64,000 bases of DNA, from assembly GCF_963676685.1 (NCBI RefSeq), contig NC_092352.1, positions 77,314,001 through 77,378,000 of the forward strand, in the 5' to 3' direction. The translations under genes and the position numbers were made by a program. How positions within the stretch are numbered: the stretch's first letter is position 1; each line of letters opens with the position of its first letter. A model generated the notes under the pieces. The model saw only the letters and a program-made list of their open reading frames with translations. It made no database searches and was not told the origin of the DNA. Source of the DNA: Mytilus edulis (lineage: Eukaryota). Below, piece after piece: positions 8,816 through 62,364 of this stretch.

Positions 8816-8870
8816 ATAAATAATCAAAAATCGTTCTGCACTTGGTTGACATGAAGTCAATCTGGTCATT

Positions 8871-9791: not shown

Positions 9792-9800
9792 GTACAACTA

Positions 9801-17561: not shown

Positions 17562-17624
17562 TTGCTATCATATACAGATATGAACACTAAGTCTTATAAT
17601 GGTACTTAATATTGGCTTTAAATT

Positions 17625-20600
17625 ATTTAGACATTCAATAAAGTCAAATATTACATATGATGTAGCTCTCTTTTTTTAATTGGTGCTTACGATCTCGTGA
17701 TTCAGAGGGGATTTAAGTACATTGACGCTATGTTTCTATCTATATATATGTATTGACGGTCAATATTAATTATTTTTCACAATGCAATGAAACTACACAC
17801 TAAGGGCATTGAAACCCATTTCCAAAATACACTATTTGCATATGTAATATAAAAAGTAAGGCATTTTACTCTAAACGTTATATTTGGACCTGCTATATCA
17901 TAATGACCCTAGGACTTCATCCACGGTCAATATAATATGAATAAGGCGATATATAACGTATTTTGATCGCCAGATGTCCAGTATTGAAAAAATGTACAAA
18001 ACACACCTAGTAGACTGTATCTTTCACCGGGGAAAATATTCTGTCAATAACTTCTATTAACAACTGTTATACAAGTTGGGGATCTCATTAGCTATAAAAC
18101 CATGTTTAAACACTTATTTTCCTCGGAAAATGCCTGTACCAAGTCAGGAATATGGCGACTGTTTTTGACTTGTTTCTTTGGTTAATAAGGTTTAGTTTTT
18201 ATGGACTACCCTTTCTAAAAAGGCATTGGAGATAAGTATTTGTGAAATAACTAGAAAAAACACTTAAGCGCGGTTTGAAGACTACATGAAATATTTAATG
18301 TGATAGACAGCTTGGGTTCGTTTTCTCTCAGACTGTTTTTATGCACTGATGCATTATGCTAAAAGTTTTGATTTGTTTTTTAGTTCTTATTTCATAGGAG
18401 TTTGAATGTCCAAATAATAGCTTCTATCTTGGTGTAACACAGATGCTAGCGCTCATAGACGGACGGAATAACTTAGAGAAGACGAAGACAACCTCGAACA
18501 CTGATGATTAAACATTTCTCAATGGTGTTAGTTTGTAATAATTCTTGATTTTTACCAAAGGTGCAAGTCGAGTTCTGTCTGTGTCACTGTCTGTTACGGG
18601 TGCTCCAAGAACGAAGGAAACAACTAAGAGAAGGCAATCTAGAACTCTCTGAAGATTTAAAACATTTCTCGATTGGTACACGTTTTAGTTTATTTTTTTG
18701 AGTTGTGCGAGCTCTGCCTATGTGTGACACGGGTGCTCCGAGAATCAGAGAAAGAAGGACTTTACGAATAGATGAAGAAAACAAGACAATGATCAAACAC
18801 ATTTGAGTTTGTTATAATTTGTTTAGTGGTGCGGGTTTGATTAAGTGATGCAAGTTGTAATACATAGTGAGACTGTTTGAGTGTTGCGGATTGGCAGTGG
18901 GACGGGTTGTCATAGATTCAAGACGAATTGAATACAAAACCATTTCCGCCTGCTTTCAAAACGAAGAAGGCAAGGAGCCAGATACGCTAATATATCCTTT
19001 ACTATATGAAGAAATAAAGAAAATTACAGACACTTACTATTTTATTTTATATCATACGTCAGACGACCAACGACTCGGTGACAAAACTGCTAAAAAAGTT
19101 TCTTCAAATTTAATAAGATCGATTGTTTTCCATTGGCTATTTATTTGTAATATTTTTGTTCGTTTTTTTTCAAATCCGTTCATTACATTGAACAGCCTCA
19201 TAAGTCTAACCAGTTTTTTCAAATACATATATTTTGTTTAATCTGTACCAGGATCAATTTATTTATGTACAGAAATGTCAGGATTTGTTTGAATGTTTAT
19301 TGAATTAGTGATTATCGACGATGACGGATGAAGGATGGACGAACGATGAGAATAGCTCTACCTTAACGGGCAGAATGCTTTGTTTTACCTGTTTGAAGCA
19401 TATATGATGTCCTAAATTCAAAGGTCAATACGTACTTACAATGTACAGTGAACTTGAGGTTAAAAAAACTACCGAAATTGACAGTCTATTCTTTAAAATT
19501 CTATTTGGAACTTTGCCTCGATATTGACAAAAATAAATGCCTTCAAACTGAAATTATGGAATACAAAATCATCGAATATAGGGTTTATAATTTGGTACGC
19601 TAGAATTATTATACCACAAAATAATAGTTCGTCACATCCGATTTTAATCATATAGCTTGGTAGTCTCAGAGCATCATTCTTTTTGATTTCGTGTTTCGAT
19701 TAAATGTATTGGAAAATTGAAGTGACATAGTTTCTAAAGAAGGTAATCAAAAAAGGCGCGAACAATTGATTGGTTAACTTCCGGTTATGGATATTATCTA
19801 ATATGCAGTTAAGTTGTACGTGATATTGACACTGAAGAACGAACTAGACATGATAACACATTACTCATGTCTACTATTTCCTTATTTGAAACAAAGATAC
19901 ATTCTGCACAATATTTTGAAAGTTCTAAATTAACAAAGACTAACAGAAAACAAAATGATGATATTACTCCTACAAACGAAGTTGTAGAGTATAAAAATCA
20001 AACATTCTGAAAAGTAGTTGCATATATGACTTTGGTGATCTATGTCCGGGGGGTATAACAATCTTAATGTTTCGAACCATTAATAACCTTGTATAAACAA
20101 TGAGTTTACAGAAAACAAAAAAGTGCCTACTACATGACATATGATATCATTGAGCTGAGGGGCGAAACGTCCACCAGGACAATTAATATAAACTTTGACC
20201 CACTGGTTTTAAAAACTCATTTAACATATACAGATTATTTCAAGTACCATTTCTTTTTTAATTTTCAGCAGTAACATACCCTCTGTTCCATCGTATGGTG
20301 TTTACATATCTCAGCTTATTCGTTACGCTGATGCATTTTTACAATGTACGGTCTTTAAAACAAGAGTGTGCTCCTACCACGAAATCTGCGTTGACGGAGT
20401 TATGTGAAAAGAACAATTGAATATAGTACAGAAATTGCAAGGTCATGAACTGGTTGTCAGACACACTGTGTCGATGTCGTAACTCATTAGCTCCATGTTT
20501 TCTTGATATTCACTCTTAAGATACCATTAAAGTCGTCTGATCTGTAATTGTACCGATTGTGACGTCTATCGTAATGAATCAGATGACAAAACCAGGTTAT

Positions 20601-22320
20601 TTTGTTTCTGTGTGTGTTACTTTTTAGTGTTGTGTCGTTGTGTTGTGTTTCCCTTGGTTTTAGTTTTGTAACCTGGACTTTTTTTTCTCAAGCGATATAT
20701 GAATTTCAAACAGCGGTATACATGTACGACTGTTGCCTTTATTTACCCTATCGAAGCACCAAGTCTCGGTCCGGATCCTCTTGTCGTTCATGCGATTCCT
20801 TTAGATTTGCATCATATATCGGTCCGGATCCTCTTGCAATTCATGAAATTACTTCAGATTTTTTTTCTTAATTCCTCTCAACCAATCGGCTTATGAGATT
20901 TGAACAATCATGGTTAATTGCTGTCGCTTTCCAATTTACATTTTTTAACCATGTGTTGTACGTTGTTGCTCGTTGTTGTCTGTACGTGAGTTCTTTTGAA
21001 GATATGAGAAGCTGGTGGTTGATGTGATAAGTTATTTTATAACAAATTTTCTTTGGACGAATGGCAGAACTTACAATGTGTATGGCAACACTGCCGTTTG
21101 CATAAGAGCTATCAACGGAAATTCAACTTAAATTGATCAGCCAATGACAGAACCACAATCACAGCGTTATTTAAGACACATACCTAGCGATTACTCTCAA
21201 ATAGTAAATTCGTTTTAGTTTAAACATATTTATTCATCATCAACACAAATATATCATCATACAAAATACACAATAATAATAGGATTCGGAAACAAGCTAT
21301 ATTTAGCTTATATTAGTCCGTTTCCTTGAAATACCAACTCCAGTTAACTATTACATAAATATAGCATGCAATGTTACTATGATATGGAACAAAAATAAAC
21401 TAAGTAACTATATAACAAAAAAAAGAAAGGAGAAAAAAACTCATTTTAAAATAAGGAAAATAAATACAACCAAAGAAGAAAAAAAAGAAAACTACACCAA
21501 AATACTACACACATGTTTAGATGAAATGCAACTTAGGTGAGAATAGTGAATAACAATTTAACTTGTAAATCTCTTGCACTTTAGTATTAATTTGACCTAC
21601 ATGACCTACTGGTACAATTAGTAATGCATTTGTGTTATTCAATCTTTCCCTGTTTTGTGTTATATCTCGTCTCACTCTTTCAACGTTCACCGCCTTTGAT
21701 AAGTATTTAGTATGATATTCACTTCTGTTCTCGTACTATGAACAACTAATTCCTTTATTCAAAATAAAACAAATCCGTAGTCAATGTATTCCTTATTATA
21801 AGATTATAACATTTATCTCAATATTTGTATAGCTAGTTTCGCCTTATATAATTAATGATATAACTGTTCTTAAAACAACACTTACATTACTTTAATAGTT
21901 GATGAAAAATTTAGAAACGTTCAACATATCTAACTTGAACGGCTGTTGAATTAGTCATATCCAAAACTGTATTGTTCTTCAGACATTTACAACGAAGATA
22001 TTGACGGTACTTCTTGATCCGTAAGACATAGATAACTAGATCTATTACAGGATTTAACAACAGAAAAATGTTGTTGAAGATGATTGTGAGAGTACCTGTT
22101 AAAGCAGATTTGTTCCCCATGTTATAATAGAACACACGAATACTTCGAGGTAGAACTGCCACTAAAGATACAGAAATTATCAAACCCAGTGTAACTGCAT
22201 TACTACGTGTTCTGATATCCTTAGCCTTCTTCTTGACGACCTGGCTCTCTGTCATTCTACTTCCGTGAACCAAACTTTGCGAACGAATCATCCTATATAC
22301 TACAACACCGTAACAGGAAA
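17625..22320 (+). repeat. Near-identical direct segmental duplicate of ~41860-46640
   Basis: Line-by-line identity, including the duplicated 72-aa and 89-aa spurious ORFs. Confidence 0.95.
20266..20745 (+). mobile_element. Penelope-like family 3 degenerate 3' end (duplicate at ~44497-45055)
   Basis: SSNIPSVPSYGVYISQLIRYA. Confidence 0.7.
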
Positions 22321-22840
22321 TGATTGCAACAACAATAAATAAGCAAGGTATGTCATGTGAAAATAACAACAATGTAGTAGTAGTGTTTTTAGGATCACAT
22401 GGTACTGGTCCGTCGATTGTTGCCATACCAAATCTCAACAAAGCAATACAGTGACTTAGTATGAAATAAAGTAAAACGCCTTTATTGCTGCATACAATGA
22501 CCAATATTCCTTTCTTTGTAGAAAATGTAGTATTCAGTCGTTCAATGCATATCAATAAAGTCTGTATAAGAGATGACATTATTGTTCCGCCAACTAGATG
22601 TTGAATTATCAAACACTGGTATTGGGATGATACGCCTTGTGAGTTCATAAAAACTAGAATACTATGATAAATTAATTCCAGACCCAATGCGATGTCGCTT
22701 AGACTAAGGTACATTGCCAATACCAAGAAACGATTCTTCTTTAATTCCTTTGACGTAGTCGATACGTATATGGAACAACCATGGAATAATAACATTGTAG
22801 TGACAATTACAAAGTGTGCTATCTTTATACTTTGCCACAT
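21911..22840 (-). CDS. Intronless class A (rhodopsin-like) orphan GPCR, 309 aa
   Basis: 7 hydrophobic segments; TM2 LSLSD; TM3 ICIERL; TM7 NPVIDLVIY (DPxxY altered to DLxxY); basic helix 8. Confidence 0.88.
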   Translation of the reverse strand: MWQSIKIAHFVIVTTMLLFHGCSIYVSTTSKELKKNRFLVLAMYLSLSDIALGLELIYHSILVFMNSQGVSSQYQCLIIQHLVGGTIMSSLIQTLLICIERLNTTFSTKKGILVIVCSNKGVLLYFILSHCIALLRFGMATIDGPVPCDPKNTTTTLLLFSHDIPCLFIVVAIISCYGVVVYRMIRSQSLVHGSRMTESQVVKKKAKDIRTRSNAVTLGLIISVSLVAVLPRSIRVFYYNMGNKSALTGTLTIIFNNIFLLLNPVIDLVIYVLRIKKYRQYLRCKCLKNNTVLDMTNSTAVQVRYVERF

Positions 22841-23250
22841 GTTTAGTCATTCCATGTACAACTACTGTATTCAATTAGCATAAGCAAAGGTAGACACAAT
22901 TAATGTCAGCTATTATATACCTTACCCCTCATGAATATTCATTAAACAAGTTTTTTTTATAGATAAAGGCAACAGTAGTATACCGCTGTTCAAAACTCAT
23001 AAATCCATGGACAAAAAACAAAATCGGGATAACAAACTAAAACCGAGGGAAACGCATTAAATATAAGAGGAGAACAACGACATAACACTAAAATGTAACA
23101 CACATAGACAAAATCCCACGAGACTACTTTAGATATTAGGTATTCTTTAATGTAGTTGGTCTTTGGATGAAGTTAATCTAATCACATCTTATTGCTATAA
23201 ATAATGAACAGTAATAAATACCAACCATTACGTTAACGAACGATTGTCCA

Positions 23251-23330
23251 TGTAGTGACAATTACAAAGTTTGCTATCTTAATACGTTGCCACATGTTCA
23301 GTTATTCTATGTACAACTATTGTAGTCAAC
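23251..23330 (-). pseudogene. Duplicated GPCR 5' end with 46228-type upstream sequence
   Basis: Matches 47113-47200, and the flank continues to ~23640. Confidence 0.75.
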
Positions 23331-25011
23331 TGATCTTAGCAAAGGTAGACGAAATGGATATAAACGCTTTTATATCTTTACCCTTATAAAATAGTGAATT
23401 TTAATGAAATATTTATTTGTAGTTGGTTCAACTTGATCTTGACCTAGAAATAAATTTATCTAAACATGTTATAATAATGGGAATGTAATTAATTCCATCA
23501 AAAAGATTACAGAATGATTGTGCATTAAAAGGTAAAGGTAAAAATTTATCGTCGACGAAAATAGTTTGGCTTTCAGTACGTCTGATTAAATTAGCTGTGT
23601 TACGGAAATTATAATTCCTTGCTCTATCAAATCTCGAGTTTCACATCCATTCAAATAACTACAAGTTTTTATTTTTTTTATAGAGAAATCGATTATCAAC
23701 TAATGAAAAAAGAAAACAAGGCATTATTTGATAGCTATCGGCAATATTCTTCTTCTTTATGTAGATCCCTTCCAGCATTGTAGCACACACAGCAAGCTGT
23801 GTTCCCTTATCGGATTATTTGTTAAAACTGTTAACGTATTCCAAATAGAGAATGTTGAAAAAATCCTCCACCGGAAAGATGCAGATACAAAAAATTCATA
23901 AGTTCGCCAAGAAGTAGATTCGACAATAAAAGCAATGTCTAGCTTAATAAAATCTTTGAACGGTCGGCACTACTTTGACTGGTGAAGAAACTGGATAGAG
24001 GTTATGCGTTAAAAGACATCATTCAAATAAAAAGCCTAGTACAGTAAGTCTAAAAATCTGCATTCCGGAGGTGTTAAAGATGGTTATCTTCTGAATAATG
24101 TTGACCTCTGTGTTAAAAAGCAATAATATACTTTTGTGTTTCAAAAGTTATAAAAAAGAAGATGTGGTATGATTGCCAATGAGACAACTATCCACAAAAA
24201 GCCAAAATGACACAGACATTAACAACTATAGGTCACCGTACGGCCTTCAACAATGAGCAAAGCCCATAACGCATAGTCAGCTATAATAGGCCCCGATAAG
24301 ACAATTTAAAACAATTTAAACGAGAAAACTAACGGCCTTATTTATGTAAAGAAATTAACTCTCAGATTCCAAAAAGTCTAGCTGTACACACATTCAGGCT
24401 TTAATATGTTGTATATTAGAGTTAAGCGAGCAGATATTAATGATGCAGATAGTTGAGCACATAGTTCCCACTATAATTTGATTGATATATGGGGTGTTAT
24501 CGGAACAAATGGGTATATGCTCAAGATGAGTGGTTAACTCATACGGAAACAACACATGATGAATGAAACACAAATTAAGGCAATGGAAATTTAAAATTGA
24601 TAAAAAAATTAAAAAACAGATATATTAAAGTAATATGTATTTCATCCAAGAATAGTCGCATATATCATGTGAATTCTGTTTATGGCATGAATGACACCAG
24701 TTTATCATCTACATTGGTAACCAGTATATAAATCAGAGATAAACTTCGTAATGTAACTAAAAATCCGTAGGTAAAGTGTGATTTTGTTTTAAATTTTAGC
24801 ATAACGAGAAAATAATGGTAGTTATTTGGGAGTGATTGAACATCTCGGAAAATTCAAATGAAATTCAACCTAGGACAAACTAAAAATAACTAATTTATTC
24901 TATTTCGCGTGGTTTAAGGAAGAAATTGTTATTGATATTTATTGGGTTATGATATATAGTCGACTACTCTAGCTTCAAGCAACAGAAAGCAAAAGTTTTA
25001 CTCGATTAAAC

Positions 25012-25376
25012 ATGTGGCAAGTTAAAAAGATAGCAAAAACCTTATTATTGTCAATGCAATGTTATTATTCCAAGGTTGTTCCATATACGTTTCGACTAGT
25101 TCAAACCAATTAAAGAAGAGTCGTTTCTTGGTATTATCATTGTACCTTAGTCTCAGCAACATTGCCTTGGGTCTGGAATTCTTTTATCACAATATTCTTG
25201 TTTTTGTGAACTCACAAGGCGTTACATTCCAATACCAGTGTTTGATGATTCAACATCTAATTGGCGGAACAATAATGTAATCTCTTATCCAGACTTTATT
25301 GATATGCATCGAACGACTGAATGCTACATTCACAACCCAGAAAGGAATATTGGTCATTGTATCCAGCAACAAAGGT
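25012..25376 (+). pseudogene. GPCR 5' fragment (TM1-TM4), frameshift plus stop
   Basis: MLLFQGCSIYVSTSS..LSLSN..GGTIM*..ICIERL; truncated after SNKG. Confidence 0.85.
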
Positions 25377-25763
25377 TGGATTCTTTTAAATTTAATTGAG
25401 TCTACCTCACAAAATCTTGTTCGGCACTATCACTACATCTCAATCATGTTTCACAATTCGTATGAAGTATGTAAAAATATAAGTGTTGATTATGAAATTG
25501 ATAATTTCATTTGTTCAAACATGTTTTGAAAATTAAATCTGGCCAAATTTCTTAGATCGTTCTGTGTGATCAGGTATGTTTGCAATATGTTGCTGCCGAT
25601 AATTAAAAATAAAAAATTACACTTTTTATGTTTGTTGAATTAAATGTCTGTTATTTCTTGGTAGGACAGAACCAACTAAATCCAAAAGTACTTTAATCAT
25701 ACATTTCAAATGTATACTGTGTATAACGGAAATGAACTTCAATGATCTTCGTGTGTTCTGTGA

Positions 25764-25866
25764 TATAGATACAATGGATAAGCGTTGATTCTTAAAGAAG
25801 ATACCATGAGCCCGGAGGGCGAATGGTTTGTTTTTCATGAATCAGCGCTTATCCATTGTATCTATA
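25764..25866. repeat. Long imperfect palindrome (non-autonomous element hairpin)
   Basis: tatagatacaatggataagcg...cgcttatccattgtatctata. Confidence 0.8.
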
Positions 25867-28509
25867 ACTTAAACTATTGTGATAACGTCTTTTCATAATT
25901 AAAGCCTATTCTTAATTAGAAGGTATTGTAAGTGAGTTTAAATAACCATGTGGTTGTGACAAACGATGAAATACAATAAATTCGATATCACAATTAAAAA
26001 GTTAAAACAAAACAAATATAGCACAACACGTCTGCCCTTAAAGATCTTCATTTATCAGGCATCTGAGTATTATCTGTTTTGACAAAATAAGACATATTCG
26101 ACCTTATTTCTCATTAAATTGAGAATGAATATGGGGAATGTGATAAAGCTGGGGAAAACAACCCGACAAAGAACATATATATAGTATATGTATAAAGCAT
26201 GTATCCGAAATTTTTAACTAGAAGCCTTATTCTAGCCACATCAAGATTTTCTAGCATATGAATTTGCGAATAAACATTTGTAAAATTACGTCACGAGTAA
26301 ATCAGATGAAATCATACTACATTAGTTTATAAAACAAAAATTGACAAATAGAATGTAGACATTTTCGTTTCAAACATTTGAAATAGGCAACAATGATCCG
26401 ATAATAAACGATCCAACTCGCTTTTTATAAACGAAATATCCACAATAACTTACAAAACAAGAAACAAAATCAGGAAGATTAGATAATAGGAACAACAACA
26501 AAAATACAGGGATTCGAACCTAAACCGACAAGTCCTTACACATTGATCTTAACCATGAAACCTCGCAGCTACCAACTCATACTGCACGATTGTCTATTAT
26601 GTATATATAAAGGTACAATCTCTGTGTGTCCGTTGTACCGATGTATATCATACATTCATTTATATATATATATATATTTGACATTTGAATCGTAACCCAT
26701 TGGTAGCCGAGAGTTTTCGTCGATATCTTGATGTCAGTAATACGTAACAGAATTCATGGACGGGTTCGATTCCCAGTGAAGGCATATTAGAAATTACCAA
26801 AATTAAAGGTAAGTTTTTAAAATAATTCTACTAGTGAACAGAAATCAGTAAATTGGCAAATTCAAACTAAATGAAATTAGGCACACAAAGAAAACAATTG
26901 AATATAATTTGGTGAGTCCATTTCAGCGACGGATTCAGAAAGTTTAGATTCTAAAAAAAGATTCCACGGTAAATGGATAGGCTGACGTCACCACAATGGT
27001 TAAATTAAATTACATGTTGGATTTGTTTTTTATATTGACCGTCAAAAACTTCAAAACTACCAATCACCAATTTACTTCCGATAATGCCAATCGCGAAAGA
27101 CACATTCGAAGTGGAATTCAAACTCATTAGTTGAAAATTAACCGATAACGCATTGCCACTTAAAAAACAATAAACAAACAACAGTACACAATGCACAATA
27201 TATAAAACTTAAAACTGAGCAACACCACTCCCACCAAAACCACATCTCATGTGCTTTGGAAGGCCGAAATTCTATTAATTGGACCACCTTTACCTAATTT
27301 TAAGGTAGTTATGTTGAACATCTGTTTCTTTGATTAAATTAAACAGGTCATCAAAAAGGAAGCTTTCCTTGTTACATATTTACCGTCATTTGCCATTCTC
27401 CTATTTGATTTCAACTTTCAACATTTGAAATAATATCCATAAAGAAAGGTATAACTGTTTTCCTTAATCTTTCTATGTAAACTTAATGTGCTCAAATGTC
27501 TATTCAACTTCTTTTCGATAACGAAGTTTTTCGCTTTTCCCATTTGAATGCTACTTTGCGACAATTTCACTTTTTTAAAAACTGTTATCATATATTGAAA
27601 GATAAATTATATTAAGCACATTCCCGAGGTTATTTATTTCATACAATTAAATAACTTGCAAAACCCAATAAAACAGCACCTCTAAAAAAAAAATGCTCAA
27701 TAGTATCCGGATGCCCCAGTCGCACTATCATTTACTATGTTCAGTGGACCGTGAAATTGGAGTAAGATTTCTGATTTGGCATTGTTATTTGAAAGATCAT
27801 AGTTAAGGGTACATGTGAACTTAGTTTCACGTTGATTAGACTTCAAATCAAAAGCAACCTCGACCAAACACTTTAAAGTGAAAAAAATCTTTTAATCTGG
27901 AGACATTTAATCTGAAAAAAACTTTTGGTCCATTGTTTTTCGGATTGTCTATCTGTTGCATAGTGAAAACGCTTTCACCCTTCATCGGATACTGTGATCT
28001 AACACCAAGGAATTAATTATTGCAACAACAGAAGACGTGCTTTACCGGAACAAAGCTAAAATGACCGTAAATTTCTTCTTGATTTATTTATGAAATCCTG
28101 TTAAAGAATAATGCATTTTATGACAGTAAACACAGCCATCAGTACTTATATCTTGTCTGCTTCATACAATGTTTTTCAGGTATATTATGTAAACTGTCAA
28201 ATATCTTTATTTACATGAAATACATTCTATTATTTAGACCATGAATTTCAGAGTATTTTATCTATTTATCGGCCATTAATCAACAAAAAACTAACTAAAA
28301 ATATTTAAAAAAAAATTGACATCTGAAAAACCTTCGCTGTTTTTATTTCAAATTTACTGTTGTTTCAAATTTAAAAAAAAAATACTTGTAACTAACTGAA
28401 ATTAAATTTTGATGTTTTAAAAGGAAGAATGGTTTATATTACAAATACATATACTCATTATAGATGCATACATAGTATATGTATACTTGGACCTCATACT
28501 CTTTTTCAG

Positions 28510-28575
28510 TGTCTCAAGGCCGATGATATAGCAGATGCTTTAGTATATGCACTAAGTGCTCCAGCACATGCCCAG
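28510..28575 (+). pseudogene. DHRS11: DHRS11-like short-chain dehydrogenase, penultimate exon (CLKADDIADALVYALSAPAHAQ)
   Basis: 66-nt phase-0 exon, tttttcAG...CAG|GTTAGT; resembles DHRS11 CLKPEDVAEAVIYVLSTPAHIQ. Confidence 0.8.
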
Positions 28576-30100
28576 GTTAGTAGTCTATGTCTTAAGTGCT
28601 CCATCCAATGCTAAGGTTAGTAGTCTATCCCTTAAGTGCTCCATCCAATGCTAAGGTTAGTAGTCTATGCCTTAAGTGCTCCATCACATACTCAGGCTAG
28701 TTGTATATGCCTTAAGTGCTCCATCACATGCTCTGGTTTGTAGTATATGCCTTAAGTGCTCCATCACATGCTCTGGTTTGTAGTATATGCCTTAATGCTC
28801 CATCACATGCTCAACCTTAGTAGTATAAACCTTAAGTGCTCCATCACATGCTTAGGTTAGTAGTCTATGCCTTTAGAGCTCCAGTTCATGGTCAGCTTAG
28901 TAGTCTATGCCTTTAGTGCGCCAGCACATGCTCAACTTAGTAGTCTATGCCTCAAATGCTCTATCTCATTCTCAGGTTAGTAGTATTATTATGTCTTAAG
29001 TGCTCCAACATAGGCCCAAGTTAGTAGTATATGCTTTAAGTGCTCCATGACATTCTCAGATTATTAGTCTATGCATTAAGTACTCCATTGAATGCTCAGC
29101 TTAGTAGTCTTTGTCTTAAGTGCTCCATCACATGCTTTGTTTTGTTGTATATACCTTAAGTGTTCATCACATGTTGAGGTTAGAAGTCTATGCCTTAAGT
29201 GTTCATTACATGATCAGGCTAGTTGTCTATGTCTTAAGTGCTCCATCAAAAGCTCAGGCTAGTTGTTTATGTCTTAACTGCTTCATCAAATGCCCAGCTT
29301 AGTAGACTATGCATAAAGTGCTTAATCACATACTCAGCTTAGTAGTCTATGCCTTAAACGTCCATGACATCCTCAGATTATTAGTCTATGCTTTAAATGT
29401 CATCTAATGCTCAGGCTAGTAGTGTTTGCCTTACGTGCTTCATCAAATGCTCACATTAGAAGTCTACGCTTTAAGTGCTCCATCACATGCTCAGGTTAGT
29501 AGTATATGCCTTAAGTTCTCCATGACTTCCTCAGATTATTAGTCTATGCATTAAAAGCCTATCACATGCTCAGGCTAGTTGTATATGTCTTAGACATGCT
29601 CATGTTAGTAGTATATGCCTTAAGTGCTCATCACATGCTCAGGCTAGTTGTTTATGTTTTAAGTGCTCCATGACATGCTCAGGTTAGTAGTATATGCCTT
29701 AAGTGCTCCATCACATGCTCTGGTTTGTAGTGTATGCCTTAAGTGATCCATCACATGCTCAGCTTTAGTGGTCTATGCCTTAAGTGCTCCATCACATTCT
29801 CAGGTTAGTAGTCTATGCCTTTAGTGCTCCAGCAAATACTCAGCTTAGTAGTCTATGCCTTAAGTGCCTCATCAGCTTAGTAGTCTATGCCTCAAGTGCT
29901 CTACCTTATGCTCATGTTAGTAGTCTATGCCTTAAGTGCTCCTGCACAGGCTCAAGTTAGTAGTATATGCCTTAAATGCTCAATGACTTCCTCAGATTAT
30001 TAGTCTATGTATTAAGTGCTCATCACATGCTCAGGCTAGTTGTCTATGTCTTAGACATGCTCATGTTAGTACTCTATGCTTAAAATGCTCCAGCACATGA
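28540..30100 (+). repeat. 40-bp tandem satellite (~39 units) derived from the exon end plus splice donor
   Basis: Unit gttagtagtctatgccttaagtgctccatcacatgctcag; aggttag at 28574, 28614 and 28654. Confidence 0.95.
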
Positions 30101-31419
30101 AGGTTTTTATTTATCCATTAAACCAGGTTCAACCCATCATTTTTTCTTAAAATTTCCTGTAACAAGTCAGACATATGACAGTTGTTATCGAAAAGGTCCT
30201 CTCTATGTCAGAGGTCTTTTTTCTTCACTTCAGAGTTCCTGTTGTTCGTTTGTTTTCCTTTTATAGTTATGTGTTTTTATCGGGTTTTTTATTTTGTTAA
30301 CCGGATTTGTTTACTCGCGATTGATTTATGACCTTAGAACACTGAACGATATAATTGTATTATCTGGGCAACTCTAGTTAACTGATGTTTAAATGTCATA
30401 AACAAATTCGGGAGAAGTAAATCAGGACATAGGAAAACGGATGGAATCACATGAAATCCAAATTGAGCGAGACCGGGTGCGCCATCAGCATAAGCGTCTC
30501 ATGCGCTTTAGGTAATATCAAATGGGGGATAACGGTGGCGTGTGATCTATGACAAAGTGTTTTGTAAATTTAGACACCTGGGTTAAAGATCAACCAATTT
30601 GTGATGGCAACCAAATAACGAGCGGATTTCAGTCGTTCTTCTATAAAAAATGTTTCTGGATTTGCTTCAAAGTTCGGCGCTTTCGTTTGACATTCGATTT
30701 TGCAATTATTTTTCAAAGTCAAATTCTCATCTTAACATGAATATTTATTGTTATTTCAGAGTTAGTACTCCGTGTATATCCATAGTTCACATAAGTTTTT
30801 CTATGTTTCTTTTTCTTGCTTTTGTAATATGTTTCCTTCCATAATAACATTTTATAATTATTAACTTTTGCGTTTATAACAATAATAACAACGTGTTCAT
30901 GGATATAACAGTTTTATGGGTAAATTTTGTTAATAATGCTCGATCAAATGAATCAACAACAAATTGAAGCTTTTAATGACCTTGACTGGCTATACAACCC
31001 TAGCACGGCCGGTATGAATGATAAATTTTACAAAGCTGTTTAGTAATAAGCAAACAGAGCTAGTAAATTATAACGATTCGTTACTTTTTCAAGTTCATTG
31101 TTAACTCTGTAAATGATTCCAGTCTCGCATCTTTTTAAGATCTTGCTATTCCCCTTGTTTTAGTTTGTGATATTGATGTGTATTCTCCGTAACTATTCAT
31201 TATATTTGAGTGTTTGTAAACTAATGTTCTATTGAATATAGATGCACAACTGAGCAGTTTGATACACATTGGTGTTTAAATTTACCATTTGTTTACGTTT
31301 ACCTGTTTGATGTTGATGTTGATGTTGAATGAGGTAAAACACGATGCACAATCGAAACTTAAAATCACGATGTTTATACATTTGGTAATTTGTATATAAT
31401 GTTATATGTTCTTGATTTT

Positions 31420-31461
31420 TTACACGACATTTTGTTACGTCCAACAGACCAAGTGAGCTAA
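31420..31461 (+). pseudogene. DHRS11: DHRS11-like terminal exon (xHDILLRPTDQVS*), acceptor AG missing
   Basis: CAC GAC ATT TTG TTA CGT CCA ACA GAC CAA GTG AGC TAA, preceded by a T-tract without AG. Confidence 0.75.
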
Positions 31462-33660: not shown

Positions 33661-36127
33661 ACTTTATAAAACAAAATAACCGAACTCCAAATAAAATTCA
33701 AATCGTAAAGCCACTTATCAAGTGACAAAATCAAAAGCACAAATACATCAAAAATATTGAAAACACCTGTCATATTCCTGACCAGGTACAGACATTTTCT
33801 TGTGTAGAAAATGGTGGTTTAAACCTGGTTTTATAGCTAGCTAAATATCTAACGTGTATGGCAGTCACATACAACTATGTAAATATAACTTAATGACATA
33901 ACAATGCTTAAATTCTGAAATTCAAATTTTGCAAACAAGCCAAATATAACCGAGTTATGGTTACAAAGAAAATATTTTTTGTGGATTTTGTTATATGTGC
34001 AAAATTGATTTGATTAACCTATTTTCATTAGACGACAATAACCTTAGCAACAGAGTTCGGTCATTGTGGCCTCAGATGTCTAGATCATGTCGATGTTGAA
34101 AGAGATTTTAGCCGGAGATCTATATATTGGATTAATGTATTTTTTAAATATATTTGTTTTGAAAAATTTCTTGTTTACTCATAGATAAAAACTGTAATTG
34201 TTCTATTTCAAAGATGTTGATACAGAGGCAAATTAGAAATGCCGGGTAAAGTTGGTATATGTACAAATTATCAGGTTGTCTGCATATTGATATTGTAAAA
34301 TATCAGTTTCGAGTCGCATTATGAAGCTTTTTGTCGAGTGAGCGCACCGAACGAGTTCAAAAATCCTTCATTATGTGTCGAGCAGTTGACAGTTTACATT
34401 ATCTTACTTCCTATACTTTTCTAGGAATATGATAGGTGAAAAGGGTCCGCGTGGAGACCGTGTATGTTCCATATTAGGTGTGGAGGGAGACTTATTTCAA
34501 TACCGGTTACGACTTTGGCCCAATTTGATTATTTAAATGTATTGAAAGTTCTGCTGACTATTGTTATATCTAAGTTGTTGATATTCAATTGTTGACATTA
34601 CGTTTTTGTGCAGACCAATGGAAGTAGGTTCTTACAATGTAACACTTGAACACTTTAATATCAAGATAAGAAGATTTGTATGATTGAAAATGAGACAACT
34701 CTTGTCTAAATTTAACAAATAAAAATAGTCGGCAAGATAAATTCGTTACATAGTGTATGTGCTAGTGACAAAATACGATATATATATATACGCTTTGCTC
34801 TCATCCTATATTGAATTCACTGACCCCGTATATATGTCGTATTAGGTAACTAACGCACTATGTGACTGCTAATATCATTATGCAGATAACCTGATAATCG
34901 TTTTATCGGGCTGTATTTGCGTCTTTTTGAAGTGTTTTCATTGTTTCGTCAGCAAACCAGAAGATGACTTGATTCGAGTCAATCTTATCAACGTCAGTTT
35001 AAACATTGTGACGTCGCTGATACGTACGGCTCAAAGTTAATGAGGCCGGGTCAATGTATTTGACGTCGCAAAGCCGTGATATGCAATTTTATTACAAGAG
35101 CTGAGCTGAGTGATATAGACAGTTGGACGACCGATAAAAAACTAATGGTATCAAATACATCATGGTTTTTTTTGTCAACACTGCAAGAATGCAATTTTTG
35201 TTTGTAGAATATATCTAATATCTAATATTCATCTGATATCTGATATACATTTAATAACTAAAACCATCTGGTATCTAATTAATATCTGATATCCAATAAA
35301 CATCTTTTTATACTAAGTATCTTAAGGATGTCAATAAGTAAAGTGAACGGACAAGAAGTGGCCTTATCGACCATCCCCTCCATGAACAGGTTTGAATTCA
35401 CGCTACACTCACTCAAAATGTTAATAAGAATTAATGCATTTTCATTAAGATATTTCGAGTAACTTTTATAAATAAACCTTGCAGTTATTTTCCAGAAAAA
35501 AACCGAACTGAAAGTTCTGAACCTTAGATTATGAATGTCTTTATGTTTTTTAGTTTAAGAAGTAAACTTTAATTATAAATTTTACTTTGTCTTTGGTTTT
35601 TTTCACAATTTTTTATGACTACCCGTATTTTTGTTTGTATTTGTTTTATTGTACATTGTATTTTCTACCCATACGCTAATTAAATGCTTACACGCATTTC
35701 AAAATTTTATGCCGACGTAATAGTTTTTACGTATCAAACACTATAAAAGTGTTATCATCACTGCCTGATCGATATCCTTGCTATTGTAAATACGTTAATG
35801 TCCGTTTCTTCTACTTGTCTTTTTCATTACCTTTTTTTACCTTTGGATTAATATGGTTATGGCTTCATCAAAGACATTGAATTCTAAAAAAAATGGAACG
35901 TGTGATTTCTTTATTCTAAATTAAAGACAACAATAAATATCATACTAACCTACTAATAATCTAAACATACTGAGTCTATCTAGAGTTTTAAGCCAGGTAT
36001 ACCTGCAAATACTGTTTGAATATATTTGAATTATTGAAAGACAACACGTATACATCTTTACATAGTTGATGAAACATTGTGAAACGTTCAACATTTGTTT
36101 CACTGATATAAAGTTAACCTGGACATT

Positions 36128-36275
36128 TTACGATAGGGCTGTCGAGTTAGTCGCATCCGAAATAGAAATACTCTTCAGGCGTTTACACAGAATATGTTGA
36201 CGGTACTTCTTAATCCGTAAGACGTAGATAATGGGATCTACTACAGGATTTAACAACAGAAACAAGTTGTCAATG
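36128..36275 (-). pseudogene. GPCR TM7-helix 8 tail duplicate
   Basis: DNLFLLLNPVVDPIIYVLRIKKYRQHILCKRLK..NSTALS*. Confidence 0.8.
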
Positions 36276-36366
36276 AGAGAGTAATGAAAACTATTTTCTT
36301 GTAACAACATAGTTGATCAATAATTAACGTTTTACAATTGGTTGACATATAGTAAATCTGGACATT

Positions 36367-37290
36367 TTAATGTACGGCTGTCGAATTAGTCGCGTCCGTA
36401 ACAGAATTGTTTTTCAGACATTTACACAGAAGATATTGACGGTACTTCTTAATCCGTAAGACGTAGATTACGGGATCTACTACAGGATTTAACAACAGAA
36501 AAAAGTTGTTGAATATCAATGCGAGAGTACCTGTTATAGCAGATGTGGTCCCCACGTACACAGAGAACACAAGCATAGTTCGTGGTAGAACTGACACTAA
36601 AGATACAGCAATTATCAAACCCAGTGTGACTGCATTTCTACGTGTTCTGATATCCTTAGCCTTCTTCTTGGCGACCTGGCTCTCAGTCATACTACTTGAT
36701 TGAAGAACATTTTGCGAACGAATCATCCTGTATATTACAAAACCGTAACAAGAAATTATTGCTACAACAATACATAAGCAAGGAATGTCATGTGAAAAAA
36801 ACCCCAGTGTAGTAGTAGTGTTTTTAGGGTCACATGGTACTGGTCCATCGATTGTTGCCATACCAAATCTCAAGAAAGCAATACAGTGACAAAGTATGAA
36901 ATATAGTAAAACTCCTTTATTGGTGCATACTAAGACCAATAGTCCTTTCTGTGTTGTAAATGTAGCATTTAGTCGGTCGATGCATATCAATAAAGTATGT
37001 ATAAGAGATGACATTACTGTTCCACCAATCAGATGTTGAATCATCAAACACTGGTATTGGAATGTAACACCTTGAGAGTTCACAAAAACTAAAATACTGT
37101 GATAAATGTACTCCAGACCCAATACGCTGTCACTGAGACTAAGGTACATTGACAATACTAAGAAACGGCTTTTTTTTAATTCTTTTGAAGTAGTCGATAC
37201 GTATATGGAACAACCATGCAACAATAACATTCCAGTAACAATTAAAAAATTTACTATCTTTATACTTTGCCACATGTTTAGTTTTTTCAT
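36367..37290 (-). CDS. Intronless class A orphan GPCR (~307 aa)
   Basis: First ATG at 37290 (the ORF track starts at a TTG); LSLSD, ICIDRL, NPVVDPVIY. Confidence 0.92.
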   Translation of the reverse strand: MKKLNMWQSIKIVNFLIVTGMLLLHGCSIYVSTTSKELKKSRFLVLSMYLSLSDSVLGLEYIYHSILVFVNSQGVTFQYQCLMIQHLIGGTVMSSLIHTLLICIDRLNATFTTQKGLLVLVCTNKGVLLYFILCHCIAFLRFGMATIDGPVPCDPKNTTTTLGFFSHDIPCLCIVVAIISCYGFVIYRMIRSQNVLQSSSMTESQVAKKKAKDIRTRRNAVTLGLIIAVSLVSVLPRTMLVFSVYVGTTSAITGTLALIFNNFFLLLNPVVDPVIYVLRIKKYRQYLLCKCLKNNSVTDATNSTAVH

Positions 37291-37834
37291 GTACAACTAT
37301 TGTATCTAATAAATATATGAAAAGGTTCACGCAATTAATATCAGCTATTATATACCTTAACTCCTCATGAATATTAATTAAACAAGTTGTTTTATAGACT
37401 ACATATATAGCTACATGAGTTATAATGTATTCTTTATTCTGAGTGGGTCTTTGGATGACCTTAATCTAATCACATCTTATTTTAACATTTAATGAGAAAC
37501 ATTAAGCTAAGGTAAACGAACTGTTATAACCACGCAAATACGAAAGCAAACAGTCCAATATTGTCTCAATATTGGTAAATGAACTGTTATAAACACAAAA
37601 GAGGCGCAAAAAATAACAGATGGACTATAAATCTCATAGATCTACTAAAAAATACCCAAAAGATGTAGATTGTTCGACTCCTTGTTGATGTGTAGATTGA
37701 CTAAGCTGAATTAGGCATACCTTTTCGGATTTTGAGCTATAAATGCTCGTTTTCTTAGTAGTATTAAAAAGATTCGACTTAAATACCACTGATGAATCAA
37801 TTATGGACTAAACGTGCTGAATAAATAGCTTTTG

Positions 37835-38134
37835 AGATCTCATAAACATGTTTAACCCCGCCGCAATTTTGCGCCTGTCCCAAGTCAGGAGCCTCTGGCC
37901 TTTGTTAGTCTTGTATGATTTTAAATTTTAGTTTCTTGTGTATAATTCGGAGTTTAGTATGACGTCCATTATCACTGTACTATTATGCATATTTTAGGGG
38001 CCAGCTGAAGGACACCTACGGGTGCGGGAATTCTCGCTACATTGAAGACCCATTGGTTGCCTTCGGCTGTTGTTTGCTCTATGGTCGGGTGGTTGTCGCT
38101 TTGACATATTCACCATTTCCTTTCTCAATTTTAT
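37835..38134 (+). mobile_element. Penelope-like family 1, 300-bp 3'-end insertion
   Basis: Near-identical reverse complement of 16126-16425; tttg duplicated at the ends; empty site at ~13761. Confidence 0.88.
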
Positions 38135-39013
38135 TTGTTGTTTGTCCAAGTGGAATTTAAATATTCTTACAACAGGTGTCCACTGTAAATCAAGTAATGT
38201 TGCAAACAGTTAATTTTCGTGTTATTTTCGTGTTTTACAACAATGCAAAATTATGAACCGTCTAACATATGTCTAATATGGTGTTTGTCTTAAATGAAAA
38301 TGCGTTTTAACAAAAATCGATACAATATATCATAAAGCGGGGATAAACCGGAAATATGTCGTCGACAAAATAAATTGGTTTTCAGTACTTCTGATTTAAT
38401 AAGCTGTTGTGCTGAAACATGGATCATAGACACTGTTAAATTGTACCAGGGAAATTACATTATGGCAAATGAAAATTCTTATTGGTGAATAAATGCTGCA
38501 AAAATGGTAAAGGTTCGGCTTAGTTCTTTTTGGTTTTTTTCTGGAGCTTCTCCTATTTATTTTCATTAAACAGTCAAGTATCGGTTTAACCTTTAATTCT
38601 CTACACGTTTTGATGTTTACAGAAAATCAATAACCAACTAAAGAAAAAATCAAAAAGGTAGCGCTTGGAGAGATATAATCTATTTATAGATATTCTGTTT
38701 TGCTTATGAACTGGTTCCAACATAGAATCTCAATATTTTGATCTCATAATTTAGGAATGGTACCAAGATAAATTAACATAAATTGCGACCGCCTTGAAGT
38801 CTAAGGAAGATCCAAAGTGACGGAAGAGGTAGTACAGAATTTATGTATAAGGTTAACTCTTACAAGTTCGGGGTTGACAATATGATCGACGCATAGTCCT
38901 ATATGTTGACCTTTGAACAAAAAAGTTAATTATATGAGCTTTCCATTCTAGGATATTATCTTTAGCGAAACTTCATAGTAAAAGAGGTACAGTTTAGTAT
39001 AGTTTACCTTAAT

Positions 39014-39420
39014 TCAAAAGTTGTGTAAAAAGTTAGTTTACAAATATGACCATATAAATGATAACTCATGTTAGCACAGAGGTGCTGACTACTAGGCAGA
39101 TGATAGCCTCGGGGAATTTAAACTCCTCCAGCAGTGGCATCGACGCAGTGGTTGTAATAAATGCATCATAGATACCAGGATAAAATTGTGTATGTACGCC
39201 AGACGCGCGTTTCGTCTACAATAGAATCATCACTGACGCTCGAATTCAAAAAAGTTAAAAAGGCCAAATAAAGTACGAAGTTGAAGAGGATTGAGGACCA
39301 AAATTCCTAAATTTTTTACCAAATACAGCTAAAGTAATCTATTTCTGAGGTAGAAAACCCTTAGTATTTCAAAAATTCTAAAGTTTTGGAAACAGTTAAT
39401 TTATAAATATGACCATATCA
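39014..39420 (-). mobile_element. Retrozyme-like monomer (363-nt period) with degenerate hammerhead at 39196-39239
   Basis: atgaccatat repeated at 39046 and 39409; hammerhead core mutated to GUGAUGA; absent at the paralog ~14900. Confidence 0.75.
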
Positions 39421-39622
39421 AGCAGTGCTTATATCTACTCTCCACAGTCATTGAAACTCATAGATTCTTGTTGAAAATTGTTGTTGTAATGTTTTCGTCC
39501 ACACAAAAGTAACTCGTAACACTTGAATATGGTTTCCTGTGACTGCGCCATACGAAATAAGCTTGGAATACAAAAATACCTCATTAAAGCTAACAAAAGT
39601 GTGTTCTATCCTAAATAATATT

Positions 39623-39953
39623 AGTTATCAAAGGTACCAGGATTATAATTTAGTACACTAGACGCGCGTTTCGTCTACATAAGACTCATCAGTGACGCTC
39701 ATATCAAAATATTTATAAAGTACAAAGTTGAAGAGCATTGAAGATCATAAATTCCAAAAAGTTGTGCTAAATACGGCTAAGGTAATATATGCCCGGGATA
39801 AGAAAATGCTTAGTTTTTCGAAAAATTCATAGTTTTGTAAACAGGAATATTATAAAAATGACCACATTATTGATATTCATTTCAACACCGAAGTGTTGAC
39901 TACTGGGCTGGTGATACCCTCTGGGACAAACGTCCACCAGTAGTGGCATCATG
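39623..39953 (-). mobile_element. Retrozyme-like 331-nt insertion with 8-bp TSD
   Basis: ataatatt at 39615-39622 and 39954-39961; empty paralog at ~15470-15500. Confidence 0.8.
39655..39698 (-). ncRNA. Minimal type-I hammerhead ribozyme (core intact, stem I weakened)
   Basis: GCGUCA-CUGAUGA-GUCU(UAUGU)AGAC-GAAA-CGCGCG-UC-UAGUGU. Confidence 0.8.
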
Positions 39954-48524: not shown

Positions 48525-48617
48525 TCAATCAGCCCAGGTGGTCTAGTTGAAACAGAGTTTGCCGTCAGGATGAGAAAAAGTGAGGACAAAGCTAAAGCAT
48601 TATATGCAAGTATCAAG
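48525..48617 (+). pseudogene. DHRS11: DHRS11-like SDR exon (SISPGGLVETEFAVRMRKSEDKAKALYASIK), acceptor reads AT
   Basis: 93-nt phase-0 exon ending AAG|GTATTG; SDR ISPGxVxT motif. Confidence 0.8.
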
Positions 48618-49555
48618 GTATTGATATAACGATATCAACCCTTACAGTACACGTTTCTAATTGCAAACCATACTTCATTTCCACATTAATACATTGCGTC
48701 TACTTAAGTATATAAGTATATATCAAGCAATGTTTTTTAATGCTTTTCAAGCACGACAAGATTTCGGATTGTCAATCTTTTGGATAGTGAGAAACCTTTA
48801 ATCCATAGTGGAACCAGCTAGGTCATCTGTGTGACCACGGCGTTACAGCTGAGACTGTAAGTTTCTTCTGATTTATTGATTAAAAACAAATAATGCATTA
48901 AATGACAGTTAACATATAAGTTAATTTACATAAAATCCATGTTATTACTAAGTACATGAATTTCAGAATATTGTACTTTGTTAATAATCCATGAAATTTA
49001 TAACTAATAAAAAAAGGGGAAAAAACTTGAAAAATGCCGAAATACATTACGCACGACTTTGCCAGGTAAAATTGTTTTTTATTATGACAAAAACATATTT
49101 CAGTTTCATTATACGACAATAACTTCAATAAAACCCAACTAAAAGTAAGTCTGTTGATGAAGTCAAAATATGTCCGATCTCCCAAATTTTTGACATTGAA
49201 ATTCAATACGATTCTTTTCAATTAAATTGAGTCTGCCTCACAAAATCTTGTATGCATTATAACTACATCTGAAGCATTTGTTAAACGTTTCACAATGTCG
49301 TATCAACTATGTCAAAATGAAAGTGCTGATTATAAAATTTGTAATTTAATTTGTTCAAACATGTTTTGAAAATTATATCTGATCAAATTTCTTAAATCGT
49401 TCTGTATGATCAGGTATCTTTGCAATATGTTGCTGCCGATAATTAAAAATAAAAAAAAATACACTTTTTATGTTTGTTTAATTAATTGTCTGTTATTCCT
49501 TGGTAGGACAGAACCAACTAAATCCAAAAGTACTTCAGTCATATATTTCAAAATT

Positions 49556-58930: not shown

Positions 58931-61105
58931 ATAGAAACTAGAAAATATGATAATTAAACCTTATGAGATCACCCCTAGTTTTTTGTGGGGTTCGTGTTGT
59001 TTATTCTTTAGTTTTCTATGTTGTGTCATGTGTACTATTGTTTTTTCTGTTTGTCTTTTTCATTTTTAGCCATGACGTTGTCAGTTTGTTTTAGATTTAA
59101 TGAGTTTGACTGTCCCTTTGGTAACTTTCGTCCCTCTTTTATCTCAATAAACCCTGATTATAGCTTATAAAATACTTAAAATTTTACAAGGACTGTTATC
59201 AAAGAATTAGCGGGTAAAGTCTTCTCGATTTTTCAAAACACAATATGATACTAGTACTCAGTTCGCAAAATAAATATAATCAACTACTATTTTATCCAAA
59301 GACAACCGGTGTATTGTCCAATATAACATAAGAAATAAATTAAATAAGCATAAATAACACGCCAATATACAACTTATTGAGTCGACCACTGGTGAAACCG
59401 AACTCATGGATTTTCCCCAAACACGGCATAAATACCGGATCTATCATGCTCATGGGTGAGCTCGCATGCGTTTATTGAAATACATTCTTTTATCATCTCC
59501 AGTTGAAACCCCATTAAAAATCTAGGAATATGTTGCCTCATTGATTGAATAATATTTCTAAGACTAATCTGTGTCCACTGTCATTGTTAAAACCAAGTCA
59601 ATCAAATCAAATTTGTACATGTTACGTAAACAAAAGAAGATTTCATCGACACCATTTCTTAAATAATTCGTTTAATATTTTCCTTGTTTGCCCTTTTTAT
59701 ACTTGCAAAGTATTTGCTATTTGCTACTTCTGTTTTTAAAAAAGTCATATCATGTAATACAGCGATATTTACATAACTTATTGGGACTGTTATACAAGTG
59801 AGAGGTTGGCTAGCAAAAACATCAGGATAATGACAGTTGATTTCCATTCGTTTGATATGTCTGGCCTTGAAGTCATAACACTATCGAGTCGGTTTTTTTT
59901 AACTCGTACTCCAAAACCTACCAATCAAAACGTTGGATTTCATGTTTCGAGCATGATTTTTGTGCTCCAATCACTGAGCAAGGACTTCAGGCCCTGTGCT
60001 TTAGATTTTGCCATTTGATGACTTACGCCTTATTCTGCTTCTTAAAATGTATAACAAAAACTAAATAGAACTGCAATGTTAAATATAGCTGTTTATTCTA
60101 GATTTGTTTATTTAAATGAGCGATATACAATGTAAACTAACAGTAGCATTTACTAACTAAACATTAGAATACAATGTGTTCGTATATAATGATTATTTGT
60201 TTTATCGCCGGTATAAACAATGACCTAGAAAAGAGTGAGGAATGGTTATGATTTACTAGCTGTGTTCGTGTATAACAAAACATCATTATACGATTTATCA
60301 TTCATTTGGCCGAGTGTTCTTAGAAACATTTACACATAAAACAAATGGTATATCTATGAAAACATTGTTGTCATCGTTAGAGCACAAAAGTTAATATTGA
60401 AAGGAAACATAGATAACACATCAAACATTTATAGACTATGGATGTACACAGAGTACTACATCTAAAATAAACCCATATACATTTTTAGATGAGAATTTAA
60501 CTTTGAAAAAAAAGTGCAAAACCGAATATCAAACGAAATCTCCCAACATGCAGGCATACTAAATACAAATTCCATTGACGAACGACTGAAATCCTCACGT
60601 TTTTTGTTGCCATCAGAAATTGCTTGATCCTTAAACCATGTGTCGAAACCTACAAGACACTTTGTCATTTATTGCATGTCACCACTATCATCAATTCGAT
60701 ATAACCTGAAGCGCATGATAAGCTTTCGCTAACGACGCAGCCATTATCGCTCAATTTGGAGTTAATGCGATTCCATTCTTTTGTTCCGTGGCCCGATTAG
60801 CATATTGTGAATTAGTTTATGACATTTGAACATAATTTAACTAGAGTTGCATAGATAATAGAATTACATCATTCACTGTTTGAAGGTCATAAATCAATTG
60901 AGAGAAAACCAAGCCGGGTTACAAAATTTAAAAAAAAACCCGTAAAATACATCAACTATAAGAGAAAAAACAAACGAAAAACAGGAAAACTGAAGTAAAG
61001 AAAAAAGACCCTTAGAAAGACACTTTTCGATAACAGCTGTCATATTTTTGACATGAAATTTTTAGAAAAAATTATGGGTTGAACCTGGTTTGATGGCTTT
61101 ACAAA

Positions 61106-62335
61106 CCTTCATGTGCTGGAGCATTTAAGGCATAGACTACTAACCTGGGCATGTGTTTAAGCACTAACAACATAGACTACTAACTTGAGCCTGCGCTGGA
61201 GCACTTTATGCATAGACTGATAACCTGAGCATGTGCTAGAGCATTCAATGCATAGACTAATATCGCACGAGCATTTAATGAAGTACTTAAGACATAGACT
61301 ACCTATCTGAACATGTGCTGGAGCACATACGGCATAGCCTACTAACCTGAGCATATGTTTAAGCACTAACAACATAGACTACTAACTTGAGCCTGCGCTG
61401 GAGCACTTTATGCATAGACTGATAACCTGAGCATGTGCTAGAGCATTCAATGCATAGACTAATATCGCACGAGCATTTAATGAAGTACTTAAGACATAGA
61501 CTACTAACCTCGGTATGTGCGAGAGCACTTAATGCATAGACTGCTAGACGGAATATGTGCGTGAGCATTTTATACATGGCCTACTAACCTGAGCATGTGC
61601 TGGAGTACTTACGGCGCAGCCAACTAATCTGAACATGTGCTAGAGCACATAAGGCATAGACTACTAACCTGAGCTTGTGCTGGAGCAATTCAGAAAGGCT
61701 GCTAACCTGAGCATGTAAGAGAGCACTTAAGGCATAGACTATTAATCTGTGGATGTGATAAATCACTTTAGGTAAAGACTGCTAATCCGGGAATATGCTG
61801 GAGCACCTAATACATAAACTACCAACCTGAGCATTGACTGGAGAACGTAAGACATAGACTACTAACCTGAACATGTGCTGGAACACGTAAGGCATAGACT
61901 ACTAATCTGAGCATGTGATAGTGCACTTAAAACATAGCATTCTAACCTGATCATGTGCTGGAGCTGAGTTTGACTGTCCATCTGGTATCTTTCTCCCTAT
62001 TTTAAACATAGCCGACTAACCTGAGCATGTGCTGGAGCACTTAAGACATAGACTACTAACTCGGGCATGTGATGGAGCACTTAAGGCATAGACTACTAAC
62101 CTGGGCATTTGCTGGAGCACTTAATGCATAGACTTCTAACCCGGTACTGTGATGAACACTTAAGGCATAGACTACTAACCTCAACATGTGATGAACACTT
62201 AAGGCATAGACTACTAACATGAGCATGGGCTGGAGAACTGAAGGCATAAACTACTAACCTGAATAGTGCTTGAGCACTTAAAGGCATAGAATACTAACCT
62301 GGACATGTGGTGGAGCACTTAATGCGTATACTAAA
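61106..62335 (-). repeat. 40-bp exon-derived satellite, inverted paralog (~30 units, 202-bp higher-order repeat)
   Basis: Reverse complement of the 28540 unit; a block is repeated at a 202-bp offset within 61137-61500. Confidence 0.95.
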
Positions 62336-62364
62336 GCATCTGCTATATCATCGGCTTGGAGACA
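62299..62364 (-). pseudogene. DHRS11: DHRS11-like penultimate exon, inverted copy (CLQADDIADALVYALSAPPHVQ)
   Basis: 66-nt exon with intact AG and GT; the downstream terminal exon appears deleted. Confidence 0.78.

Follow-up and report, generated by a model that had tools for sequence, protein, structure and literature searches.

The locus described here lies in 64,000 nucleotides of Mytilus edulis DNA (hereafter the window), where an exon of a dehydrogenase-like gene runs, at its splice donor, into dozens of tandem copies of its own end. It raises the question of how a satellite comes to be made of exon-intron junctions, and what so many repeated donors do to the gene that carries them. The initial annotation proposed that the satellite was born from the end of a DHRS11-like exon and that its units are decoy donors which could tune or kill expression. 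As argued below, we consider it probable that this is a minisatellite of the exon 6 end and its donor, formed a single time in an ancestral gene and passed on to three local duplicates (here called A, B and C), in which it is likely tolerated as a near-neutral passenger. As the array is found in one live gene and in two copies that have decayed, the locus constitutes a natural experiment, and its layout permits testing whether pseudo-donors have been purged from working genes alone and whether sequence is exchanged between a coding exon and the satellite made from that exon.

The repeat unit and its origin

Tandem Repeats Finder (TRF) reports a tandem array at 28541-30053 of the window, with a 40-bp period, 38.3 copies, 76% matches and a score of 1502, and segmentation extends it to ~30100 as 40 units, i.e. 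one exonic, 38 internal and one terminal. The unit comprises, as the initial annotation had it, the end of the DHRS11-like exon plus the donor, namely the final 35 nt of exon 6 and 5 nt of the intron (GTTAG). The exonic unit agrees with the array majority at 30/35 positions, and its best match elsewhere in the window, with the two arrays left out, reaches 21/35. All the mutated junctions listed previously are present in array A (CAGCTT 7 times, CAGATT 4 times and CAGGCT 8 times), but the statement that many units keep CAG|GTTAGT was too strong: GT is kept in 16 of the 38 internal units, AG|GT in 8 and the full CAG|GTTAGT in 4, while 7 have GC. The same annotation overlooked a second array of the 40-bp unit of array A on the minus strand (61110-62333 by TRF) as well as the lack of exons upstream of the flagged one.

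The TTAGTA motif, previously suggested as a slippage seed, does occur both in the exon and at the start of the intron (28540 and 28577 in copy A), but its two copies are 37 nt apart rather than 40, so that slippage between them requires a further 3-nt insertion, and the three arrays retain no junction of the 37 type. In array C the terminal junction is GTTTGTA, one change away from GTTAGTA, with which the TTAGTA seed would stay plausible. The first duplication may have been produced by slippage or unequal exchange across the junction, either as a 37-nt TTAGTA slip with a 3-nt insertion or as a direct 40-nt event, and further unequal exchange would account for the growth and turnover of the array.

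Dehydrogenases of the DHRS11, or SDR24C-like, type are characterized by seven exons, a length of ~250-260 aa and the motifs TGxxxGIG, NNAG and YxxxK. All three motifs are found in gene B, an intact paralogue on the minus strand outside the window (G000:C9:77443196-77433757), which has seven exons with GT-AG boundaries, a 252-aa reading frame and an array in its last intron. The product of exon 6 matches residues 247-268 of PDB entry 1xg5 (ARPG836) with an E-value of 7.6e-4, and that of gene B exon 2 matches the same structure at 4.8e-17, with the next match at 5.8e-7. ARPG836 is given as an alias of DHRS11 (PMC6157328), which makes human DHRS11 the best match of both exons among solved structures. 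The human gene has seven exons and encodes 260 aa (PMC6157328); copy A, with exons 6-7 only, and copy C, without exon 7, fall short of this layout. The length of exon 6 is equal in all three copies. A second, distant DHRS11-like gene is located on another contig (G000:C1:80444587-80410622, minus strand); its exons 5 and 6 appear to be fused without an intervening intron, and its intron 2 is ~24 kb long.

If the unit were a dispersed satellite or a mobile repeat, it would be expected at unlinked loci, independently of DHRS11. In the genome all 18 matches of a DNA search and all 13 matches of an exact 18-mer fall in just three arrays, situated within 100 kb of each other on one contig (C9), each downstream of a copy of exon 6. 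No unlinked locus was found among the matches scored, where the DNA search scores the best candidates only and diverged copies of the unit may escape it. A metagenome scan for the array returned 0 matches. In the distant paralogue on contig C1, the matching stretch ends in PSHVQ|GT, i.e. at the same junction, and there is no array. Since the exon end matches human DHRS11 and the C1 paralogue is free of the array, the exon end and the Q|GT junction came first and the satellite second. The origin of the array from coding DNA, as put forward in the initial annotation, is thus supported by the human match, by the C1 junction and by the restriction of the unit to the three arrays.

The three array-bearing paralogues

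Table 1. Features of copies A and C and of a further DHRS11-like fragment in the window
Feature	Position	Strand	Remarks
3' part of intron 5, copy A	27925..28509	+	homology to gene B starts here, ~280 nt past exon 5 of B
Exon 6, copy A	28510..28575	+	66 nt, CLKADDIADALVYALSAPAHAQ; acceptor (ttttcag) and donor (CAG|GTTAGT) intact; orphan, exons 1-5 not found
Array A	28541..30102	+	40-bp period; the exonic and 38 internal units are followed by a terminal one that ends in CACATGAAG|GTT
First (authentic-type) donor CAG|GTTAGT	28573..28581	+	from sequence; equivalent site used in paralogue B
In-frame TAA on read-through	28612..28614	+	precedes the first pseudo-donor (+40)
Exon 7 remnant, copy A	31422..31461	+	AG acceptor lost to a 6-nt deletion; the closest AG lies 90 nt upstream
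Decayed orphan exon 5, from another DHRS11-like fragment	48525..48623	+	
Intron 6, paralogue C	60183..61097	-	homology to B stops near 60183; exon 7 not found
Array C	61098..62333	-	31 units including exonic and terminal; 202-bp five-unit duplication
Exon 6, paralogue C	62299..62364	-	exons 1-5 outside the window, G000:C9:77389057-77382243

Exons 1-5 of copy A are not in place according to a motif scan of the window and tblastn/blastn searches of 264 kb plus 50 kb to the left and 60 kb to the right, and none of them turned up in the 128 kb upstream. These searches yielded only the orphan exon 5 listed in Table 1 and an orphan exon 4, the latter a part of a further DHRS11-like fragment (G000:C9:77521614-77521465, minus strand) with decayed neighbours, no exon 6 and no array. 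A 1.16-kb segment at 25883-27009 matches, at 77% identity, DNA located 2.2-3.3 kb upstream of the start of gene B, which would agree with the loss of 8 kb from a formerly complete copy A but may, at this identity, reflect a low-copy repeat. With exons 1-5 missing and the exon 7 acceptor lost, the flagged copy A is a broken gene fragment in which there is likely nothing to tune.

Paralogue C has exons 1-6 intact, with both frame and splice sites kept. A candidate for its exon 7, encoding IHDIPCLRP at 55100, was rejected as it is on the wrong strand, inside an inverted repeat. Its intron 5 is ~5 kb longer than that of gene B and contains a 236-bp direct repeat with 98.7% identity (62720-62955 and 63410-63645), and a short unrelated insert (61976-62015, minus strand) breaks array C at units 8-9.

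The flanks of the arrays diverge by 8-9% between A and B (30/332 and 70/874) and by 14-20% in comparisons with C (A-C 44/306 and 164/816; B-C 56/302 and 161/813). For exons 1-6 of B and C we calculated a dS of 0.238 and a dN of 0.030, i.e. a ratio of 0.125, so that the genes carrying the array through the paralogue split were under purifying selection. The arrays number 40 units in A and 31 each in B and C, with exonic and terminal units included and one haplotype considered per locus. All three share a terminal unit ending in CACATGAAG|GTT, and units A32-A39 are collinear with B24-B30, including a shared unit of 30 nt, while the 5' parts do not align, so that unit number and order differ between the paralogues. 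From the common terminal unit and the collinear 3' units of A and B, the array predates the duplications; from the unaligned 5' parts and the five-unit duplication of C, it has kept turning over since. The site patterns around exon 6 reveal no conversion between A and C (14 and 16 sites unique to A against 16 and 17 unique to B).

Only one of the three copies with an array is complete, and both A and C have an intact GT at +40 and +80, which could suggest that the array killed these two genes. The array, however, predates all three copies, gene B lives with it, the visible lesions in A and C are deletions elsewhere, and the six exons of C keep their frame and splice sites at the dN/dS ratio given above, all of which makes killing by the array the least credible of the explanations considered here. 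A near-neutral passenger is better compatible with these observations, and copies A and C would have decayed through deletions unrelated to the array.

Splicing of the intact gene

Which donor is used can be examined in gene B. A search with its exon 2 identified 24 runs, all of them assembled contigs, of which five were examined (X1-X3, X5 and X6). Four of these, X1-X3 and X6, are presumed to be RNA, for which their intron-skipping joints argue; X5 has cover on exons 2-3 only. Of the four runs examined on exons 1-6 (X1-X3 and X5), three (X1-X3, from three studies) have a single contig that joins all six across canonical introns. In X1-X3 the depth on the first bin corresponds to exactly the 66 nt of exon 6, beyond which 43, 27 and 27 letters remain, and the same depth figures, 144, 29.8 and 31.7, account for a cover of exon 7 of just these lengths. 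Run X6 has a loose end at exon 7 that agrees with the end of gene B exon 6 at 30/30 positions, compared to 28/30 for the best array unit, and low-depth cover also on the acceptor side of intron 6. The junction from exon 6 to exon 7 is therefore made from the first donor in 4/4 runs examined on exon 7, as read from contigs, where minor forms are possible.

X1-X3 have no contig on the first 85 nt of gene B intron 6, and none of copy A or C on exons 3, 5 and 6 according to depth arithmetic; in contigs, and in runs selected by an exon of gene B, such absence proves nothing. On the donor side, the analysis of intron 6 reached +85 into the array, and 761 and 90 loose ends occur beyond those listed; as contigs moreover drop rare variants, a minor use of downstream donors in gene B is possible. 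The contigs of X2 and X3, which come from two studies, both stop 27 letters into exon 7 (L035:973-999). These ends could reflect a second path into exon 7 that shares only the CAG, such as an unspliced intron, a paralogue, an allele or a downstream donor.

The proposal that the repeated donors tune expression, by sending some of the transcripts into dead ends, has some appeal in gene B, where 14 of the 29 internal units keep GT in register and six of these agree with the real donor at each of nine positions. All the intact downstream donors lie at least 60 nt past a stop at intron nt 58. Transcripts with a premature stop are subject to decay according to the 50-55 nt rule, and those using the downstream donors would thus likely be degraded, on the rare occasions when they are made. 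Besides, the array persisted across ~20% of flank divergence. On the other hand, contigs of all four studies use the first donor, the flagged copy A cannot make the protein, the paralogues differ in how many units they have and in what order, and the donor positions show no better conservation than the rest of the unit. Together with the array having been carried through the paralogue split under purifying selection, and with a GT depletion that does not reach significance (see below), this leaves the decoy proposal with very little probability. We prefer the near-neutral passenger, since intact gene B splices at its first donor and the flagged copy A is a fragment; the choice of the first donor may follow from exon definition or from 5'-to-3' scanning, as tested for human F7.

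As for read-through, the initial annotation was right about the TAA in copy A, which corresponds to intron nt 37. Its further argument, that 40 is not divisible by 3, is irrelevant, since the stop precedes the first pseudo-donor and, at any rate, 13 of the 38 internal donor sites are in frame.

Possible depletion of GT at the repeated donors

If downstream donors had competed with the real one, variants destroying GT would have been favoured, chiefly near the real donor of the functional gene, and pseudo-donors would have been purged by selection. GT is kept in 16/38 internal units of A, 14/29 of B and 20/29 of C. In a first tree-based count of 91 units, after five poor ones had been dropped, GT was broken in 47%, the highest value among 11 comparable dinucleotides, as compared to 11% and 17% for the other two GTs of the unit. 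Changes at +1 and +2 co-occur once, where five such cases are expected. Gene B has CT at +40, GA at +81 and a shifted CGT at +121, while array A starts with GG.GG and array C with seven intact GTs.

These figures are suggestive of GT depletion. The first count favoured it, but in a second, fairer tree-based count with centred windows +1 ranks 2 among 18 G/C columns and +2 ranks 8 among 22 A/T columns, with their sum reached by 8% of 357 control column pairs, so that the depletion relative to other unit positions falls short of significance (p ~0.08). As the units are related, much of the broken-GT count can be put down to a small number of alleles that duplication has spread. Moreover, it is the dead fragment A that has the smallest share of intact GTs, B keeps nearly half of its own, and the chance of finding the first three pseudo-donors of B out of action is 0.12. 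We therefore regard purging by selection as improbable, if less so than tuning by decoys. The near-neutral passenger, which we favour, has to leave to chance that few columns vary more than the +1 G and that the first three pseudo-donors of B are dead.

Comparison with known donor-spanning minisatellites

The layout of the array, that of a minisatellite which spans a donor, has been described before (F7 IVS7, CBS, amphioxus 'mirages'). Such repeats have a head-to-tail unit of 10-100 bp, and the unit here is 40 bp in 38.3 copies; the first unit lies over the true exon-intron boundary, here with 35 + 5 nt around a junction that is spliced in B; the donor is repeated downstream, here with the GT counts given above; and the most upstream donor is the one in the mRNA, as found for gene B in all four runs, from contigs only. 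In minisatellites of this kind copy number would also be expected to vary among individuals; here, with one haplotype per locus, it differs among the paralogues.

The closest parallel is the 37-bp VNTR in intron 7 of human F7, whose first unit spans the exon-intron boundary, with the donor repeated in the intron and, as described there, the most upstream donor alone normally used (Borensztajn et al. 2006, PMC1557585). Boundary-spanning first unit, repeated donor and use of the first donor are shared with the present array. The F7 unit, however, combines 4 nt of exon with 33 of intron in 5-9 near-identical copies, whereas here it is 35 + 5 nt in 31-40 copies which are ~21-26% apart, half of them with a broken GT, and which occur in three paralogues. 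Donors repeated 10-25 times behind the real one are also found in human IFI6 (6-16), CBS intron 13, LMNB2 and PDGF (as summarised in PMC1557585), and resemble the present array in lying downstream of the real donor; according to the same summary, 6-16 and CBS use in addition two proximal pseudo-sites, a point against the passenger reading, while the contigs examined here gave no sign of this.

Among invertebrates, the 'mirage' minisatellites at the Adh3 and globin genes of amphioxus (Ebner et al. 2010, PMC3087553) are likewise tandem duplications at exon boundaries with splice signals in many but not all units, undisturbed regular splicing, and turnover by unequal exchange, though their unit sizes and genes are different. 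Their cluster boundaries are described as excluded from homogenisation (PMC3087553), while in the present case some variants are common to the exonic unit and the array. Variable internal tandem repeats have also been reported in paralogues from human segmental duplications (De Grassi and Ciccarelli 2009, PMC2812944); as here, these include minisatellites at exon-intron boundaries whose copy number differs among recent paralogues. According to that report such repeats frequently give rise to novel introns or to amino-acid repeats, in contrast to exon 6, the length of which is unchanged.

Possible exchange between exon and array

The variants common to exon and array hint at an exchange of sequence. 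The changes specific to exon 6 of gene B, at positions 42 and 63, both match the array-majority base, as does the one variant of exon 6 in run X3 (position 36); the chance of a random silent change matching the array majority is 0.085 and 0.043. The exon majority departs from the array majority at five sites, of which four are synonymous, against 26% expected (p 0.017; with the youngest site left out, 0.055), and the fifth yields PSH, as in the C1 paralogue. The exon bases are among the commonest minor alleles of the array (ranks 1, 3, 4 and 6). On the other hand, position 43, which adjoins 42, is unconverted, and the exon-type alleles travel together in units in one positive pair (p 0.024) and one negative pair (p 0.017), with four pairs null. 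The exclusion of boundary units from homogenisation in amphioxus (PMC3087553) likewise speaks against exchange. With a test that was post hoc, it is a tentative suggestion that the exon 6 end and the satellite trade sequence, the array keeping an older state of the exon and returning variants to the live gene, of which only silent ones pass. Retained polymorphism is a possible source of the shared variants. A search of the literature, with subscription journals and supplements outside its scope, found no published account of exchange between a coding exon and a satellite.

Other repeats in the window

The window contains a large direct segmental duplication (10444-27184 and 37300-50248) with pieces that are 76-99% identical, among them 17561-20598 and 41797-44830 at 98.7%. 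Its second block holds the orphan exon 5, the place of which is occupied by a repeat in the first block. A repeat of ~1.1 kb is present in five copies that are 82-87% alike and occur in both orientations (8157-9808, 21936-22963, 36061-37398, 46253-47340 and 50878-52201). TRF also detected an 18-bp tandem family at 5256-5445, 7418-7587 and 35213-35305, a 253-bp array at 12742-13375 and a 47-bp array at 57367-57566.
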